The notes under the pieces: generated by a model
The model's input: only the letters and a program-made list of their open reading frames with translations
What the model was told of the DNA's origin: nothing
Database searches by the model: none
Assembly: GCA_000990585.1 (NCBI GenBank)
Contig: LBQD01000002.1
Coordinates: forward strand, 250,408-314,407
DNA: 64,000 nt
Source: Candidatus Moranbacteria bacterium GW2011_GWE2_35_2-
Lineage (GTDB): Bacteria; Patescibacteriota; Minisyncoccia; Moranbacterales; UBA9337
Direction: 5' to 3'
Translations under genes and position numbers: made by a program
Part shown: positions 3,025 through 58,336 of the stretch, in pieces
Layout: the number at the start of each line of letters is the position of its first letter
Numbering within the stretch: position 1 is the first letter of the stretch

Positions 3025-6000
3025 ATGAGTGATAAAAAAACTTTTAAACTTGGAAGCGGGGATGCCGATAGAAATTTAGAAGAATTAAAAAAAATCCTTC
3101 CGGCAGAAAAAAATGGTTCGGAGATTTTGGAAATGGAAGAAAAAAAAATCGAGCGGATGTATGATGAAATTTCCGAAATTATTGGAAATACTTTTGAAGG
3201 TGAATTCAGAGAAAAAACAAAAAATATTTTCAGAAAAGATGCGGAGAATAAAGTAAAAGAAATAATAGATAATACGGAAAAGTTTGTATGCACAAAGGCG
3301 AAATCGGAAAAATGGTATGAAACGGATTTGTCAGAGGAAGATATGAAAAATAAAGTTAAGGAATGTATAAGAACAAATCTCAACAGTATTTCAGGAATAA
3401 AGAAATCAAAACTTTTTAAGGCTGCTGTTTTGGAGGCTGTTAAGGGACAAAAAAACGAAAAAGAAACGGAAAAAGGGATTAAAGAGGTGGCTGAAAAGGG
3501 AATAAAAAATGAGGATGTGAAAAATGAAGCTAAGGAAAAAGAATGGACAAAAAAAGACAAAGAACGTGAGGCGTTTTTCAAACTGGAAGGTGAATTCGGG
3601 AAAATAGGGACGGGATATGTGTATCAGCCGGAAGCCGGAGAAAAACAAAAAATTAAGATTAAATCTTATAAAATTATTTTTAATAAGAAAGGTGGAATTG
3701 ATTGGAATAATACGGAAGTGTTGTTTTTGCGCAATGGAAAACCAGACAGAAAAACCGTTGAAACTTTTCGCAATATTGTAGGCAAATCGAAAAAAATCGA
3801 AAAAAATCGAAAAGAAATTCCGCAAGAAATTGAAAATGAATTTCATTTATACGAAAAGTGGATTCCTGTCGATCGAAGTAAAGCAGGTTTTCGAATTGCT
3901 GATTATAATAATGGTGATTTTACTCTGGTATTTGATGTAAATAGAAAAAAACAAGACGAAAGAATAAAAAAAGTAAACATTAAAGAATTACGTCAAAGAA
4001 TTAAAGATGGAAAATATCAAATTGAAAGCTTGGTGGCAAGTGATGCAAATCTGAAGGTAAATCCTGGTAAAAAAAATAAGGATATGGATGCGGTTGGCGA
4101 TAGTGAAAATGTTGAAAAAAAGGAATATGACGCGGCGGAGTATTTGCATTTGACGGAAAAAACTTTTGGCGAGGATGGAAAGCAGATGACAAATTTGGAT
4201 TTTGCCAAAGCGGTTTTGTATTCTCAAGTTGGAAATTGGAAAGAATTGGATGCCGGTACTCCCCAAGAACGGGAGATAATCATCAATGACAAAATCCGGA
4301 AATTTTTTGTTGAAATGGGAGTTGCGGTGCATGGGTTAATTAAAAATGTTAAAGATAATGAAGGGCAAAAAGAACTTCAATTAAACGAAAAACCTGATTT
4401 GGACGGAAAAGCAACTCTTTTTCTTTTGAAAAAAGCGGGAATTGAAGTTAAATCTGATTCAAAAAAAGGAAATATTAAATATGTCATCCCTGGAACTCAT
4501 GCAATCGGTAAAATAACATTTGACAGTGGAATGGTGGATGGAGTGGAAATTCGTAAGGAACAAAATGAAAAAGGCGAATGGGTAATTTCCGTTATCGCGG
4601 ATCATCATGGCGATACATCGCCGCGGGACACGTCCGCTGCGGATGTTGCGTATCAAACTTTTTCTAAACTGGGGCTTTTTGAGGAATATTTCCAGAAAGA
4701 CGAAAAAAACAAAGAAAACTTGGAAAAATTGGTGCAGTTTATCAACCGAATCGACAATTTTGATTATCCGAACGGAAAAGAATATTTCGAAAATTATTTT
4801 CAGAATTCTTGGGATACGATTATGGGAGTTTCAAGAATGCTCGGACCGCAAAATTTTTTGGATTTTTTTGCCGATGGGCGCAGCATTGACGATGTTTCTA
4901 GAAGTATTTCTGAAATGCGTTTGTTGAAAAAGGATATGAGGCGGTATGGAATTTTGCAATTAAGGGATGTAAAGGACGCAGAAAAAGTAGATGAAATATT
5001 GAAAAATCAACAAATTGATCCGGAAAAAATCAAAAAAGGTGAGGAACTAACGAAAGAGCAAATGGCTGGTCTTGGCAAGGCGGGATTTCACTATGATAAA
5101 ACCAGAAAAGTGATTAGGGAATATGTAGATGTCAGACAAATGCAAGAAGAAAGAGTCAAGGAATCCCAGGCGGTTTTGATGGAAATGGAAAAAGACGGGC
5201 TTATTATTGAATCGGATCGTTTCGGGAAAATTGCGGTGGATATTGACGGTCGAGTCGAAACCGGTTCGGAGGCGGCGAGGGCTTTTGGGTGCGAAGCTTT
5301 TGTCCTTTGGAATCCGGAATATAATCGTTTTAGTGTCAATACTCTCGGCGGGAAAGAATTGATTGATCTTGTTGGGAATCTTTTGGCAAATAAATATAAT
5401 CAAGGGGTGGAAGTGCGAAAAACAATGTGGATAAAATCTCTTGCGGAAAAGGATGAGCCTTTGAATATAAAACTAGAAGATATTTTGGGTGAACTTACGG
5501 ACGGGAAATTTGCGCCGACAGGGAAATTGAAAGAGTATATTGAAAACGGGGAAAAATGGGGTGAAGAAGTGGAAAAAGGAGATGGAAGGGATGAAGAAAA
5601 AAAGGTGGCGAAGGAGAGCGAGAAAGACAAGGCTGAAGTTGTTTTTGATGAGAAAGGGGAATTGGAATTGGCAGATGGGATTGAAAGGGAGAACGCGAAA
5701 GAGAATATGAATATGGAAACAAGCGCAGAAACGGCAGTGGAAAGACCGGCTTTTGAAGCGGGAAATATGCCTTTGGCGGATTTTGAAAGGATGCAAAGAG
5801 AATTGGATGCCAGTCGGGAATTTTATGTGAAGTATAATCATGAATTCGAAAAGAAAAGGAATAATTTGGAAAAATATTTTGGAAAAATTGAAAATCCAAA
5901 TTTTTTCGGACAGGCGCAAGAAGAGGTGAAGAATTTGAAAGATTTGTATGATAAAAAATCAAAAGAATATGTAAAAGAATATTTGGCGACTATGCGAAAA

Positions 6001-51613: not shown

Positions 51614-51619
51614 TTAAAT

Positions 51620-51743
51620 ATGAAAAACAGTTTTCCATTAAACAACAATCAACAGCAAAATAACTGGCCTTTCCGGCAGCTTGTTTTCTGATTATTTTTT
51701 CAAAGAAATAAAATGGAAAACCGGCTGCAGGGTCGGTTTTTTT
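51620..51743 (+). ncRNA. Candidate ~125-nt small RNA (promoter to intrinsic terminator AAAACCG-gctgcagggt-CGGTTTTTTT) with no substantial ORF
   Basis: A promoter and terminator bracket a region with only a 15-codon ORF. An alternative internal pairing CCGGCAGC...GCTGCAGG is possible. Confidence 0.3.
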
Positions 51744-55192: not shown

Positions 55193-55807
55193 ATGGAAAA
55201 ACATCCAAAAAATGAGAGAACATTGGTTATTATCAAGCCGGACGGAATTCAAAGAAGCTTGGTGGGGGAAATAATCAAGCGTTATGAGAGAGTTGGTTTG
55301 AAATTGGTTGCAATGAAAATGATGATTCCGACCGAGGATATGGCAGTGAAGCATTATTATGACGTGGGCGGAGATGCGTGGCTTGAGGAAGTTGGGAGAA
55401 AGGCGAGAGCGGCGTATGAGAAAAAAGGAATGACTAGTCCATATGCCACTAATATGGAAAATGGAAAAGCGGTAATGATGAGCAATGCCAAATATTTGAG
55501 TGCGGGTCCGGTGGTGGCGATGATTTGGCAGGGAAATCAAGCTTGCGCATTGGTGCGTAAAATTACCGGCGGAACGGAACCATTGACGGCGGATTTGGGA
55601 TCGATTCGTAGTGATTTTACTTTGGACACATTTGCTTTGGCGGATACAGATCAAAGAAGCGTACGCAATCTTTTGCATGCATCCGGAAATCCTGAGGAGG
55701 CGGAAAAAGAAATTCCGATTTGGTTTGCGGAAAATGAAATTCTCAAATATAAGCACATCCAAGAAGCGATTTTGTATGATGTGAATCTGGACGGAATACT
55801 TGAGTAG
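55193..55807 (+). CDS. ndk: Nucleoside diphosphate kinase (with a ~50-aa insertion)
   Basis: Motifs ERTLVIIKPDG and NLLHASGNPEEAEKEI (the active-site His region). Confidence 0.8.
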   Translation: MEKHPKNERTLVIIKPDGIQRSLVGEIIKRYERVGLKLVAMKMMIPTEDMAVKHYYDVGGDAWLEEVGRKARAAYEKKGMTSPYATNMENGKAVMMSNAKYLSAGPVVAMIWQGNQACALVRKITGGTEPLTADLGSIRSDFTLDTFALADTDQRSVRNLLHASGNPEEAEKEIPIWFAENEILKYKHIQEAILYDVNLDGILE

Positions 55808-55843: not shown

Positions 55844-55871
55844 AACCGGCTGGAATATGCCGGTTTTTTTG
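55844..55871 (+). terminator. Rho-independent terminator after ndk
   Basis: AACCGGC-tggaatat-GCCGGTT followed by TTTTTTT. Confidence 0.7.
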
Positions 55872-55899
55872 TATAAGGTATTTACTTTTAAAAAAATAA

Positions 55900-55939
55900 A
55901 ATTTACCATTTAGAAACGGTCGTTTCTAAATGGTAAATT
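55900..55939. repeat. 40-bp near-perfect palindrome AATTTACCATTTAGAAACG-gt-CGTTTCTAAATGGTAAATT
   Basis: 19-bp perfect arms seen directly. No flanking U-run. Confidence 0.6.
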
Positions 55940-55983
55940 GATGGATAGGGAAGGAGGGAATTGGAACAAAGATTTGATTGTGG

Positions 55984-56012
55984 ATAAGTTGGTTTGACAA
56001 TATTTTTTTGTT
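55984..56012 (+). promoter_or_regulatory. Consensus sigma70 promoter TTGACA-17-TAGAAT positioned for a leaderless transcript
   Basis: The -10 ends 6 nt before the ATG at 56019, so the predicted TSS is at about the A of the ATG. Confidence 0.5.
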
Positions 56013-56018
56013 TTACTA

Positions 56019-56108
56019 GAATATGAGTATGAATAATTTATCAGCTAAAATGTTGCTAGCCTATTTGCTAGTCCTCATTCTTGAGGGACATTTTTTGCCG
56101 GTTAAATT
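56019..56108 (+). CDS. Candidate leaderless 29-aa hydrophobic peptide (MNNLSAKMLLAYLLVLILEGHFLPVKLNS); possible type I toxin-like or membrane micro-protein
   Basis: Promoter immediately upstream, terminator 45 nt downstream, a single predicted TM helix. Confidence 0.3.
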
Positions 56109-56152
56109 GAATTCATAATTTTAAGAGTAGTAGCATAGAAAAGAAATTCAAC

Positions 56153-56176
56153 CCGGCAAAAAAGCCGGATTTTTTG
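56153..56176 (+). terminator. Rho-independent terminator CCGGC-aaaaaa-GCCGG plus ATTTTTT (nested in the outer IR AAATTCAAC/GTTGAATTT)
   Basis: Seen directly. Confidence 0.6.
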
Positions 56177-56210
56177 TTGAATTTAAATGTAGCTCTTTAA
56201 CAATCTGTAT

Positions 56211-56247
56211 ACTACAAAATCTTGCGATCGTGAGTGTTTTGTAGTAA
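56211..56247 (+). promoter_or_regulatory. Inverted repeat TACTACAAAA-N17-TTTTGTAGTA upstream of the 63-aa ORF
   Basis: 10-bp perfect arms. The loop contains CGATCG. Confidence 0.35.
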
Positions 56248-56288
56248 ATGGGTTTGGCGAAAAAAATAAAAAAGAGAAGGAGGAAAGT

Positions 56289-56480
56289 ATGGGACCCGTT
56301 TGTTCTAATGGAATAGTTGAGAGTAATCAAAAGATTGTTGCGGCTGGTAATGAATTAGATTCGATACAGCGCCAGATTGACGCAGCTAAGAGGGCTGACG
56401 ATACTGCTCGGGTTGCTGAATTAAGTCGCCAGCTCGAGGGGAAAAAGAATGTTGTTAGAGGCGATAGGCCATATTTTTAA
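56289..56480 (+). CDS. Small helical protein (63 aa) with a strong SD
   Basis: AAGGAGGAAAGT precedes the ATG. Charged, coiled-coil-like sequence (QRQIDAAKRADDTARVAELSRQLEGKK). Confidence 0.4.
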   Translation: MGPVCSNGIVESNQKIVAAGNELDSIQRQIDAAKRADDTARVAELSRQLEGKKNVVRGDRPYF

Positions 56481-56495
56481 TGAGGAGGAATTTTT

Positions 56496-56642
56496 ATGAC
56501 AGATAGCAAATGTTTGTATGAAAACGGTTGTCAGAGCTGTATTGCTATGTGCGCTGTTGGAAAATGTCCGCGAATGCAGGGAGTGGATGTTTTTTCTGCC
56601 TTTGGCAAGAAAAAGGCGTGTATTAAGCTTGCTGGAAAATAA
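56496..56642 (+). CDS. Cys-rich 48-aa peptide (MTDSKCLYENGCQSCIAMCAVGKCPRMQG..) with a strong SD
   Basis: TGAGGAGG 8 nt upstream. Cys in CxxC-like spacing. Followed by a hairpin plus U-run (about 56668-56712). Confidence 0.4.
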   Translation: MTDSKCLYENGCQSCIAMCAVGKCPRMQGVDVFSAFGKKKACIKLAGK

Positions 56643-56715
56643 TATTTTTTTCCATATTATATAAAGGGTTCGGTCGAAAATTTGACCGTTCCCTTTTCTT
56701 TTTTTGTGAATCTTT

Positions 56716-57741
56716 CTATTTTACAATATGCATTTCCATTGTGTCTGCGTTGAGAATGACTGCCATAGAGTGCATTTTTCCGACCATATCTGGCAAATTT
56801 TTCTTGATAATGTCTTGCGTGAGGCGGTTGAGATAGAGCGTGCGTTCTTTGGCGCGCGAAATTTCTGCGGCGTCCGAGTATACCGCGGATGACAAAAGCA
56901 CGAATTCTTTTTGTCCGCTTTTCGCGTTCATATTCGATTTGATGATATTGGCGGCGGTTTGAATCGGTTCGCCGATATTCGGGTCATATGGACCGACAAT
57001 CATTGCAATATTCGGCGTGTGCAGCCAATCAAATCCTTTTCCTACTGCCAAAATCCATTCGCCGTGAACCATTTGTTTGAGAGGCTTGCCAGTGTTTGTT
57101 GTTTGTTTGATGCAACGCATATTTCCTTGTACCAGTGGAATTAAATCAGAAAGAATTCGTTCCGGCATTGATGGATATAATTTTCCAAAAAGTGTTTTCA
57201 AATTTTTTTCATCACTATCTTTGATTGTCGCTACATCCATAATTTGTCCATTTTCTCCATGGAAAATCAAAGCGTCTTTGTCCGTTTCCAGTCCGACCAG
57301 AATTGGAAAAACTACCCCGTTGTTTTCTCCATATGTGCGCAGAATTTGTTTGCGGAATTCTTCTGTGAATCTTTTCGATTCTTCACAGTCATAATGAAAT
57401 CCGGCACATCCGCGATGCTGGTCTCCTTCAGAATAATGATATGTCACCAGGACGAGCGTGCGGTTTCCTTTGGCTACGGCTTTTTTCACATAGCGGTCGA
57501 AAGATTCGTTCAGGAGCGGCCAACCGAGATCGAATTTTCCTCCGATGTTGCGGAAGGGGTGCATAATTCCTAGCGGAGTTTGGGTGACAGTCGGCATATG
57601 AATGCGCCCGTCCATACATTTGAAAACAATCACATTGGTCGGATGTTTTGCCAAATATAGTTCTCTTTCGAGTCGTTGGCTTTGAAACATTTCCGAATGT
57701 TTTTTGTTCAACTCAGTAATGAGTTTGATTTTATTTTCCAT
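56716..57741 (-). CDS. Divergent beta-class carbonic anhydrase-like protein (zinc-site motifs CxDxR and HxxC) with a ~140-aa C-terminal extension
   Basis: VIVFKCMDGRIHMP..FRNIGG and QHRGCAGF, spaced about 60 residues apart as in beta-CAs (compare CSDSRV...HTxCGG). Confidence 0.45.
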   Translation of the reverse strand: MENKIKLITELNKKHSEMFQSQRLERELYLAKHPTNVIVFKCMDGRIHMPTVTQTPLGIMHPFRNIGGKFDLGWPLLNESFDRYVKKAVAKGNRTLVLVTYHYSEGDQHRGCAGFHYDCEESKRFTEEFRKQILRTYGENNGVVFPILVGLETDKDALIFHGENGQIMDVATIKDSDEKNLKTLFGKLYPSMPERILSDLIPLVQGNMRCIKQTTNTGKPLKQMVHGEWILAVGKGFDWLHTPNIAMIVGPYDPNIGEPIQTAANIIKSNMNAKSGQKEFVLLSSAVYSDAAEISRAKERTLYLNRLTQDIIKKNLPDMVGKMHSMAVILNADTMEMHIVK

Positions 57742-57835
57742 AATTTTTTACGTTTTTAATTAGTTTGGACTTTGGATTAGTATGATACATTGTAAGTGTA
57801 TAATAAAGGGTGAAAAAATCAATAATTTTGGGATA

Positions 57836-57864
57836 TTGAAAAAAATAAAAGGGCGTGGTATATT
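57836..57864 (+). promoter_or_regulatory. Sigma70 promoter TTGAAA-17-TATATT with TGn extension
   Basis: Seen directly. Followed by a 65-nt leader containing the GCGGAAAAAATTTTCCGC hairpin and an AAGGAGGG SD. Confidence 0.45.
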
Positions 57865-57935
57865 GCGGAGGAAAACAATAGGGCGGGCGGAAAAAATTTT
57901 CCGCTCAAAAAAATTTTTCAAGGAGGGAATAAATT

Positions 57936-58163
57936 ATGCCTGACATGGGAAAGAAGTGGTTAGCGTTGAGCGAGAAGAGTTCAGCAGGGAAATTGCGGAT
58001 TCCTGCTGCCGGATTGAATGATGGCGTAAGCAGTTTGTATCGCGGGACCGTCTATCATCCCGAGAGCGGAGAGTTGTTGATTCGGGAAGATACTTCGGGT
58101 TGTAGCGGTGAGTTTCCTTCTGCGGGTGGCATTTGCCCGTGCAGCCGGACATACAGCGGGTAA
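57936..58163 (+). CDS. GC-rich 75-aa ORF (C-terminal GCSGEFPSAGGICPCSRTYSG) of unknown function
   Basis: Strong SD, promoter upstream, and locally elevated GC in an AT-rich genome. Confidence 0.35.
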   Translation: MPDMGKKWLALSEKSSAGKLRIPAAGLNDGVSSLYRGTVYHPESGELLIREDTSGCSGEFPSAGGICPCSRTYSG

Positions 58164-58336
58164 TTTTCTTTGGTTCTTTTTTTTGGAGCTTTCGATCAGT
58201 GTTTGCGTGAATCTGCGCAATTAGGTCGATTGCTCCCTTTCTTTTTTTGAAAAATTATATTATGCTGGAAAAGAAATGAAGTAGAGTAGAATAAGACAAA
58301 TAGGACGCATAAGACATATAAGACTTATATAATTTT

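Follow-up and report, generated by a model that had tools for sequence, protein, structure and literature searches.

A putative leaderless leader-peptide attenuator ahead of exchangeable micro-protein genes in a Candidatus Moranbacteria genome

The stretch analyzed here, 64,000 nucleotides (nt) of contig LBQD01000002.1 (positions 250,408 to 314,407 of the forward strand; hereafter the window), comes from an uncultured Candidatus Moranbacteria organism (Parcubacteria, Candidate Phyla Radiation, CPR) of Rifle groundwater. Our subject is a cluster of very small genes close to its right end, in which a promoter, a tiny leaderless open reading frame (ORF), a terminator and two genes for proteins of 63 and 48 amino acids (aa), both led by a Shine-Dalgarno (SD) sequence, follow one another. 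All elements that a first-pass annotation had listed for this cluster were found where it had placed them. We are inclined, with some reserve, to read the leader as a ribosome-sensed transcription attenuator that works through a leaderless leader peptide and controls a swappable small-protein cassette. As such, it would be a previously undescribed attenuator of classical design with a conserved DnaA box at its promoter.

Locus, relatives and leader reading frame

The elements of the cluster are as follows.

55979-55987, minus strand: DnaA box of perfect consensus (TTATCCACA on the minus strand), located around -50 to -42 and separated by 6 nt from the -35 hexamer that follows
55994-56022, plus strand: sigma-70-type promoter TTGACA-17-TAGAAT, with 11 of 12 consensus matches
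56029-56118, plus strand: leaderless leader ORF (MNNLSAKMLLAYLLVLILEGHFLPVKLNS) of 29 codons (56023-56118 if 31 aa)
56029-56054, plus strand: region 1, the 5' strands of helices P1 (56029-56034) and P2 (56041-56054), from the folds and the pair table
56055-56086, plus strand: hairpins P3 (56055-56072) and P4 (56073-56086), nearly invariant and encoding LLAYLLVLI-x-EG
56087-56116, plus strand: region 2, the 3' strands of P2 and P1, of which 56091-56101 (UUUUUUGCCGG) alternatively pairs with region 3
56153-56175, plus strand: terminator of the proposed attenuator, CCGGC-AAAAAA-GCCGG, with region 3 (56153-56163), region 4 (56164-56168) and a U-run (56170-56175)
56210-56246, plus strand: hairpin H1 (inverted repeat) of the 5' untranslated region (5'-UTR)
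56289-56480, plus strand: 63-aa gene, with the SD AAGGAGG at 56277-56283, 5 nt upstream
56496-56642, plus strand: 48-aa Cys-rich gene, with the SD GAGGAGG at 56482-56488
56664-56706, both strands: bidirectional 3' terminator, common to all cargo types and the right boundary of the swapped cassette

UR69_C0002G0294 of the source genome, GW2011_GWE2_35_2-, has the same sequence as the 63-aa protein, and the locus is also present in the assemblies GCA_000989885.1 and GCA_000992055.1. The locus was looked for in related genomes and recovered in five further lineages. The Athens type (Parcubacteria bacterium Athens0714_25; L016/L017) was reached via the 63-aa homologue P0004, and L021 is a contig of 518 bp. 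Lineages L022 and L080 were reached via synteny of a convergent 341-aa gene and a metagenome pattern scan, and L081, whose contig stops short of where the upstream gene ndk would be, via the 341-aa homologue P0006. The most distant lineage, L082/L083, came from the 63-aa homologue P0127, which in a full HMMER profile search of 1.84 billion representatives was the sole further real homologue of this protein, the other matches being spurious coiled-coil giants; the protein forms just two clusters at 50% identity among these representatives. Word-indexed searches with the 48-aa and 63-aa proteins returned near relatives only, a DNA-pattern scan of viral contigs gave no match, and the metagenome scan gave a single one, a 1.1-kb contig of the L022 type. 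Synteny of the 341-aa gene is lost below approximately 88% identity, and the set of lineages is not extendable that way. From these searches, the leader element appears to be restricted to one narrow Moranbacteria clade.

A covariance model of the 5' domain of the leader was run on the window and on 60 loci and yielded no additional copy, the best extra match having E = 0.31. Weak matches to this model lie at orthologous intergenic sites of the window (51616-51705, minus strand) and L016 (5271-5360, minus strand), with E values of 0.31 and 1.2. They are located near small genes upstream of comEC and probably reflect chance, though they recur in both genomes.

The intergenic DNA next to ndk is unalignable between lineages, and conservation starts abruptly at TTGTGGATAA. 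From there, the conserved stretch continues through the promoter and the first 90 or so transcribed nt, and it is better conserved than ndk itself: identity to L082 amounts to 93% for 55979-56022 and 80% for the 5' domain, compared with 68% for ndk, and a 27-nt core of the 5' domain differs from L082 by one base. Sites with at least 11 of 12 promoter consensus positions number 8 in the 64 kb, against 3.4 in shuffled sequence. The consensus DnaA box is matched exactly by the complement of TGTGGATAA, which is invariant in all lineages, while the six bases separating it from the -35 hexamer vary between them. The window contains six perfect DnaA boxes (at 5426, 10038, 22189, 25384, 29632 and 55979), about 7-fold more than the roughly 0.8 expected from composition, and 34 boxes with at most one mismatch, against 17.5 in shuffles; only one box lies at the promoter locus. 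With its consensus box, the promoter is a candidate for regulation by DnaA, which may provide an input. A replication origin near the box was considered and rejected, as the GC skew is uniformly positive across the window and the local box is single.

The ATG at 56029 follows the -10 hexamer by just 7 nt, which makes a leaderless start plausible; from the same spacing, transcription would start at or next to this AUG. Leaderless translation also looks normal for this genome because many genes of the window have a -10-like (TATAAT-like) hexamer 6-11 nt before their ATG, which suggests that leaderless mRNAs are widespread. Only 6 of 51 window genes (56289, 56496, 57936, 41710, 42702 and, weakly, 18552) have an SD-like motif no more than 18 nt from their start, three of them being the small-protein genes on either side of the 341-aa gene.

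Start, length and stop position (56116-56118) of the leader ORF are kept in five lineages without any indel in 96 nt, and the stop codon is TAA in most of them and TAG in L080. Between clades, the ratio of nonsynonymous to synonymous substitution rates (dN/dS) of the leader peptide is 1.3-2.4, compared with 0.04-0.08 for flanking genes, and all five differences between the Athens type and L081 are nonsynonymous. A dN/dS above 1 would fit a leader peptide rather than a functional protein. The first-pass annotation had described this ORF as leaderless, which its start geometry makes plausible, and had likened its product to a type I toxin or single-span membrane micro-protein. The latter part does not hold: a conserved toxin is contradicted by the dN/dS of 1.3-2.4, and in the Athens type, L081 and L082 the hydrophobic run is LLAYLLVLI(A/I), which at 10-11 residues is too short to span a membrane.

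What is invariant in the ORF is a core of nine codons, TTG CTA GCC TAT TTG CTA GTC CTC ATT (LLAYLLVLI). Five of them encode leucine, and three of these five are among the rarest Leu codons of the genome (CTA 4.4%, CTC 4.9%); GTC and GCC are likewise the rarest Val and Ala codons. The cargo has no recognizable link to leucine.

Folding of the leader RNA and the proposed switch

Three lineages share one four-helix fold of the leader's 5' domain (100 nt), at z-scores of -4.0, -4.4 and -4.9. P1 is formed by the 5'-terminal AUGAAU and the AUUCAU just before the stop codon, and P2 encloses the adjacent hairpins P3 and P4. Compensatory changes in P2 comprise the pair 16:70 (G-C or A-U) and, between the window and L082, the pairs 23:62 (U-A or G-C) and 24:61 (G-C or U-A). 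Together with a U-run, P4 could possibly act as a pause site for RNA polymerase. Further downstream, the terminator is kept in five lineages, also with compensatory changes.

The two structures are connected by a second, mutually exclusive pairing. In the window, UUUUUUGCCGG (56091-56101) in region 2 is 100% complementary over 11 bp to CCGGCAAAAAA (56153-56163), which consists of the 5' arm of the terminator and its A-rich loop. The corresponding antiterminator of the Athens type pairs UUUUUCGUCGGA with UCCGACGAAAAA over 12 perfect bp, and in L081 and L082 it extends over 13 bp including G-U. Complementarity of 11 or 12 bp was found in 0 of 5000 dinucleotide shuffles of the upstream sequence. 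Across lineages, the pair between column 70 and region 3 appears as C-G, U-A or U-G and co-varies with the 3' arm of the terminator as well. The pair between column 68 and the first base of the terminator loop appears as U-A, C-G or U-G and matters for the antiterminator only.

Constrained folds were calculated for sequences ended at the U-run, where termination is decided, and the first 30 nt were barred from pairing to mimic a ribosome. In all four lineages folded, the free RNA formed P1/P2 and the terminator, while blocking of the first 30 nt produced the antiterminator and the terminator was gone. Without any constraint, the L081 RNA has the antiterminator as its minimum-free-energy structure. 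For the window and Athens types, the antiterminator state is less stable than P1/P2 by approximately 4-7 kcal/mol, and P1/P2 is the first to form during transcription, so that something active, such as a ribosome, would seem to be required to open it for read-through. Taken together, we consider it probable that a terminator/antiterminator switch of some kind is located here. Rfam, searched at the gathering thresholds and at E <= 10, contains no family for the leader. The best sub-threshold matches were at chance level, the one to Trp_leader reaching 15 bits against a gathering score of 41.

The mechanism that we propose would start at the strong sigma-70 promoter with its DnaA box, from which transcription would begin at or next to the AUG at 56029, and the first 150 or so nt would serve as the transcription attenuator. 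In unoccupied RNA, P1/P2 would enclose P3 and P4, the terminator at 56153-56175 would form and a short RNA of approximately 145 nt would be released. A ribosome translating the leaderless 29-codon ORF would cover the 5' strand of P1/P2 and free region 2, most likely when stalled on the rare Leu, Val and Ala codons of the stretch TTG CTA GCC TAT TTG CTA GTC CTC. Free region 2 would then pair with region 3, the terminator would be blocked, and RNA polymerase would read through past a stabilizing 5'-UTR hairpin into the SD-led genes for the 63-aa helical-hairpin and the 48-aa Cys4-type proteins. The stop codon lies 15 nt past region 2 in every lineage, and a ribosome located there would have region 2 within its footprint and could mask it, thus favoring termination. 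The sensor would accordingly be the ribosome, and the signal Leu-tRNA or the general status of translation.

Several points weigh against this ribosome-sensed attenuator. In one common register, 98% of the cells are paired, compared with 32-51% in slid controls, but a single pair has changed on both sides. Formal covariation is weak, the observed score being equalled by 26 of 500 shuffles, and several of the compensations rest on a one-base register shift between clades. When the 3' flank is included, the window-type terminator gains an outer stem (AAUUCAAC/GUUGAAUU), and this extended form is the minimum-free-energy structure until approximately 57 nt are blocked. Lone substitutions in P3 (L082) and P4 (L022) each break a pair and are uncompensated; because of them, pairing does not explain the near-invariance of P3 and P4, which could equally reflect a site for binding a ligand or a protein. 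In addition, no link of the cargo to leucine or amino-acid metabolism is evident, the approximately five lineages known all belong to the same narrow clade, and a literature search for leader-peptide attenuation in the CPR gave no match.

Some of these points feed a serious rival, in which the same switch answers to a ligand or a protein. The P1-P4 domain would then be the sensor, be it of a small ligand, of a protein or of another RNA, the element would be a riboswitch or an attenuator that depends on a protein, and the presence of the ORF would be incidental. Besides the unexplained nucleotide conservation of P3, the P3 loop and P4, this rival draws on a leader peptide without purifying selection, on z-scores of -4 to -4.9 as are typical of structured leaders, and on the independence of the leader from the cargo that follows. 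We nevertheless regard it as unlikely. Even at E <= 10, no Rfam family matches, and, since P1/P2 of the window and Athens types precedes the antiterminator and exceeds it in stability, a ribosome is the simpler opener. Moreover, an AUG at the predicted 5' end, 96 nt without indels, a stop codon kept through a change from TAA to TAG in L080, and the rare codons would jointly be unaccounted for. A ribosome-sensed attenuator remains our preferred reading.

Transcription unit, cargo genes and neighborhood

The first-pass annotation had counted two complete units, each bounded by a promoter and a terminator. Our analysis leaves a single promoter, and the first terminator is one half of the terminator/antiterminator switch. 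No conserved -35/-10 pair was found between the terminator and the 63-aa gene in any lineage, nor a promoter for a second unit anywhere in 56176-56288, and an internal promoter ahead of the 63-aa gene was ruled out on these grounds. The 5'-UTR offers further evidence. Hairpin H1 is present in the window, L021, L022 and L080, a different hairpin (H2) takes its position in the Athens type and L081, and L082 has both. Among the variants, G-U pairs and A/G exchanges facing a U account for the differences, and these preserve pairing in the RNA of the plus strand only; the region just downstream of the terminator is thus transcribed. In the folds of the 5'-UTR, the cargo SD is unpaired, and the strong SDs of the cargo in an otherwise SD-poor genome fit genes that lie at least 260 nt from the 5' end. 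Most likely, 55979-56706 is a single transcription unit.

The competing arrangement would be a stand-alone small RNA of approximately 145 nt, possibly dual-function, next to a separate small-protein operon with a weak, non-consensus promoter. Promoter and terminator do bracket such an RNA neatly, attenuator-derived small RNAs are able to act in trans (PMC6614838), and candidate hexamers exist: a possible -10 hexamer is TATACT at 56208-56213, which the lineages of the H1 type share, and TTGACA follows the terminator in the Athens type, L081 and L082. However, TATACT is missing in the Athens type and L081 and TTGACA in the window, which leaves no conserved, workable pair. The compensated complementarity between regions 2 and 3 would have no role, and the hairpin substitutions described above place the region past the terminator in a transcript. 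We hold this arrangement to be improbable, and the single unit under a leader-peptide attenuator is retained.

Both SD-led ORFs had been put forward as genes that standard callers would largely miss, and this is borne out. With dN/dS values of 0.14-0.28 (63-aa gene) and 0.12-0.26 (48-aa gene), both are real and under purifying selection, and they are syntenic in L082, whose ndk is only 68% identical. An alternative frame overlapping the 48-aa gene (56518-56664) is interrupted by a stop codon in L082. The 48-aa gene is called in some assemblies only, and the leader ORF of 29 or 31 codons is annotated in none. The AlphaFold2 model of the 63-aa protein shows two helices (pLDDT 76), predicting a generic helical hairpin, and a Foldseek search of this model against the PDB gave a best match of E >= 0.3. 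For the 48-aa protein, the model was unusable at a pLDDT of 60. Its cysteines C6, C12, C24 and C42 are kept in the homologues of L082 (49 aa) and L081 (59 aa), which share the motifs C.Y.NGC, G.CP.M and C.KL. Sequence searches of all cargo proteins in Pfam, NCBIfam, PADLOC, PHROGs and the PDB returned nothing significant, with DUF1090 and FlgM as below-threshold matches only.

The SD-proximal leader and the 3' terminator are the same among relatives, and the small, mostly Cys-rich cargo that they enclose differs; the swapped segment covers approximately 56284-56661 in the window. L021 has the 63-aa protein together with an unrelated-looking Cys-rich peptide, and L081 a 72-aa Cys-rich protein together with the 59-aa homologue of the 48-aa protein. 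In L022 and L080, the cargo is a single 70-aa Arg-rich protein (dN/dS 0.13) that keeps only an RRRAC.KL-like motif. Between the window and the Athens type, the synonymous divergence (dS) of the 63-aa gene is 0.64, compared with 0.15-0.31 for its neighbors. Aligned to L016, the window segment 53600-59100 is a mosaic in which 100%-identical blocks of several hundred bp stand beside blocks of approximately 70% identity, the 63-aa gene and intergenic DNA being the most diverged parts. The mosaic indicates recent recombination between the populations of the window and Athens0714_25, and, combined with the dS excess, it points to recombination at this locus. Nearly identical 48-aa genes in the window and the Athens type had at first seemed special, an idea that was dropped in view of this block structure.

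The view that the 29-aa ORF is a hydrophobic toxin or membrane micro-protein of a type I toxin-antitoxin-like system, or that the Cys-rich proteins are precursors of bacteriocins or of ribosomally synthesized and post-translationally modified peptides (RiPPs) with an immunity partner, can appeal to the largely conserved N-terminal 19 residues (M.MNNLS.K.LLAYLLVLI), to cargo as hypervariable between close relatives as is often seen in toxin/immunity loci, and to the hydrophobic tail of the 59-aa L081 protein, but is very unlikely given the substitution pattern and short hydrophobic run of the leader peptide, the absence of any promoter-like site at 56120-56300 in a consensus scan of the minus strand (a search for antisense transcription over the ORF having been suggested), cargo proteins without signal peptide or leader-cleavage motif, and a neighborhood without modifying, maturation, transport, export or immunity genes. 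What stands of the earlier toxin/immunity idea is that the cargo differences between relatives are compatible with a fast-evolving, possibly conflict-related locus.

The surroundings of the unit comprise the following features.

55193-55807, plus strand: ndk, nucleoside diphosphate kinase (Pfam NDK, E = 1e-36)
55844-55872, plus strand: intrinsic terminator of ndk, with a stem at 55848-55865 followed by a T-run
55872-55978, unstranded: lineage-specific insertion of approximately 108 bp, not in L081 and L082
55900-55939, unstranded: perfect 40-bp palindrome, 100% complementary over its 19-nt arms and present once in the window
56716-57741, minus strand: convergent CsoSCA-like gene of the carbonic-anhydrase fold, 341 aa (Pfam CsoSCA_cat)
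57936-58163, plus strand: SD-led gene for a 75-aa Cys-containing protein (MPDMGKKWL...GICPCSR), with a promoter-like site at 57836-57864 and an 86-aa homologue in L082

Wherever the upstream flank was recovered (window species, Athens type, L022, L080 and L082), ndk adjoins the cluster. In L081 and L082, the hairpin of the ndk terminator directly abuts the DnaA box. The palindrome noted in the first pass is real, but it is no part of the conserved unit because it lies inside the insertion missing from these two lineages, and a role as operator was ruled out for the same reason. The insertion also contains an orphan GGAGG, and the Athens type has an unrelated, AT-rich palindrome of 34 bp at this site; the insertion could be the remnant of a small mobile or hairpin element. 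Terminator-like sites are frequent around the locus, with 9 in a 3.5-kb region versus 3.2 in shuffles.

The carbonic-anhydrase-like gene on the right, which the first-pass annotation had also noted, is a neighbor outside the unit and is not found at this position in L082. A gene for tRNA-Pro(GGG) lies between the cargo terminator and the 341-aa gene in L081 (3660-3731, minus strand); L082 has, at approximately 2140-2235, a tRNA-Pro-like sequence with an internal insertion that is not called by ARAGORN, and the window has neither. The spacer beyond the 341-aa gene (57742-58336) is 97-100% identical to Athens0714_25, which is above the conservation of the flanking genes. As a non-coding RNA this spacer was rejected: it matches no Rfam family and holds the 75-aa protein gene instead, which is a second micro-protein locus beside the 341-aa gene. 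Overall, the neighbors of the locus encode ndk, SpoIIM, metallo-beta-lactamase-fold, CsoSCA-like, UppS and thioredoxin-fold proteins. The contigs L023 (CAZSCV010000008.1) and L030 (DYDB01000006.1) are clearly Moranbacteria-like and carry the titles 'Bdellovibrionales' and 'Micavibrio sp.', which look like binning or labelling errors; L023 is the same contig as the Athens-type locus L016.

Known attenuators and bearing on the host lineage

The layout of the proposed attenuator resembles the leu (leuL), trp and his attenuators of enterobacteria, in which a short leader ORF precedes alternative helices 1:2, 2:3 and 3:4 ending in an intrinsic terminator, and in which the stop codon is placed such that a terminating ribosome could mask region 2. 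As the Salmonella leu attenuator uses rare CUA control codons (PMC1183508), so the Leu run of the locus is drawn from the rarest codons, CTA and CTC. In contrast to these systems, the ORF is leaderless instead of SD-led and with its 29 codons spans regions 1 and 2, no similarity in sequence or to Rfam models was found, and orphan micro-proteins in a CPR host take the place of amino-acid biosynthesis genes.

Leaderless leader-peptide attenuators have been described in Deinococcus deserti (PMC4007540), and leaderless polycysteine short ORFs serve as attenuators in mycobacteria (bioRxiv 10.1101/834739). These cases share with our locus the 5'-terminal AUG, the lack of annotation by gene callers and the proposal that a stalled ribosome remodels the downstream RNA. 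Unlike our locus, they control genes for tRNA synthetases, amino-acid or cysteine metabolism that match the enriched codon, and the mycobacterial element acts on translation by unmasking a ribosome-binding site, with no terminator involved. A further parallel is the attenuator-derived pair of RNA and peptide rnTrpL/peTrpL of Sinorhizobium meliloti, which is dual-function (PMC6614838, PMC7298713). Premature termination at the Moranbacteria leader would likewise release an abundant short RNA with a small ORF, and the strong conservation of P3 and P4 leaves activity of this RNA in trans as a possibility.

For annotation, the locus provides a concrete case, defined by its sequence, of genuine micro-protein genes that are overlooked or inconsistently called by pipelines and that are exchanged as a cassette between co-occurring relatives. 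When genome scans encounter a promoter, a tiny hydrophobic ORF and a terminator in front of SD-led genes, attenuation should be tested for before a toxin is considered. The significance of the element is limited by its narrow distribution and raised by its host lineage and its swappable cargo.

CPR bacteria are uncultured organisms with minimal genomes, and their gene regulation is almost uncharted. As a speculation that we consider decidedly doubtful, the attenuator might report translational status, i.e., Leu-tRNA charging or ribosome slowing, and maybe also replication status via the DnaA box, and thereby switch on a hypervariable cassette of tiny Cys4-type (possibly metal-binding) and helical-hairpin proteins. 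These would take part in strain-specific conflict or interact with a host; they might form toxin/antidote pairs, for instance, or modulate ribosomes or phages. If true, a CPR bacterium, possibly an episymbiont, would possess a micro-protein locus that is gated by stress and shuffled by recombination. Should the ribosome-sensed attenuator itself hold, the coupling of transcription and translation would serve as a sensor in a CPR lineage, and it would do so via a leaderless ORF in an SD-poor genome.

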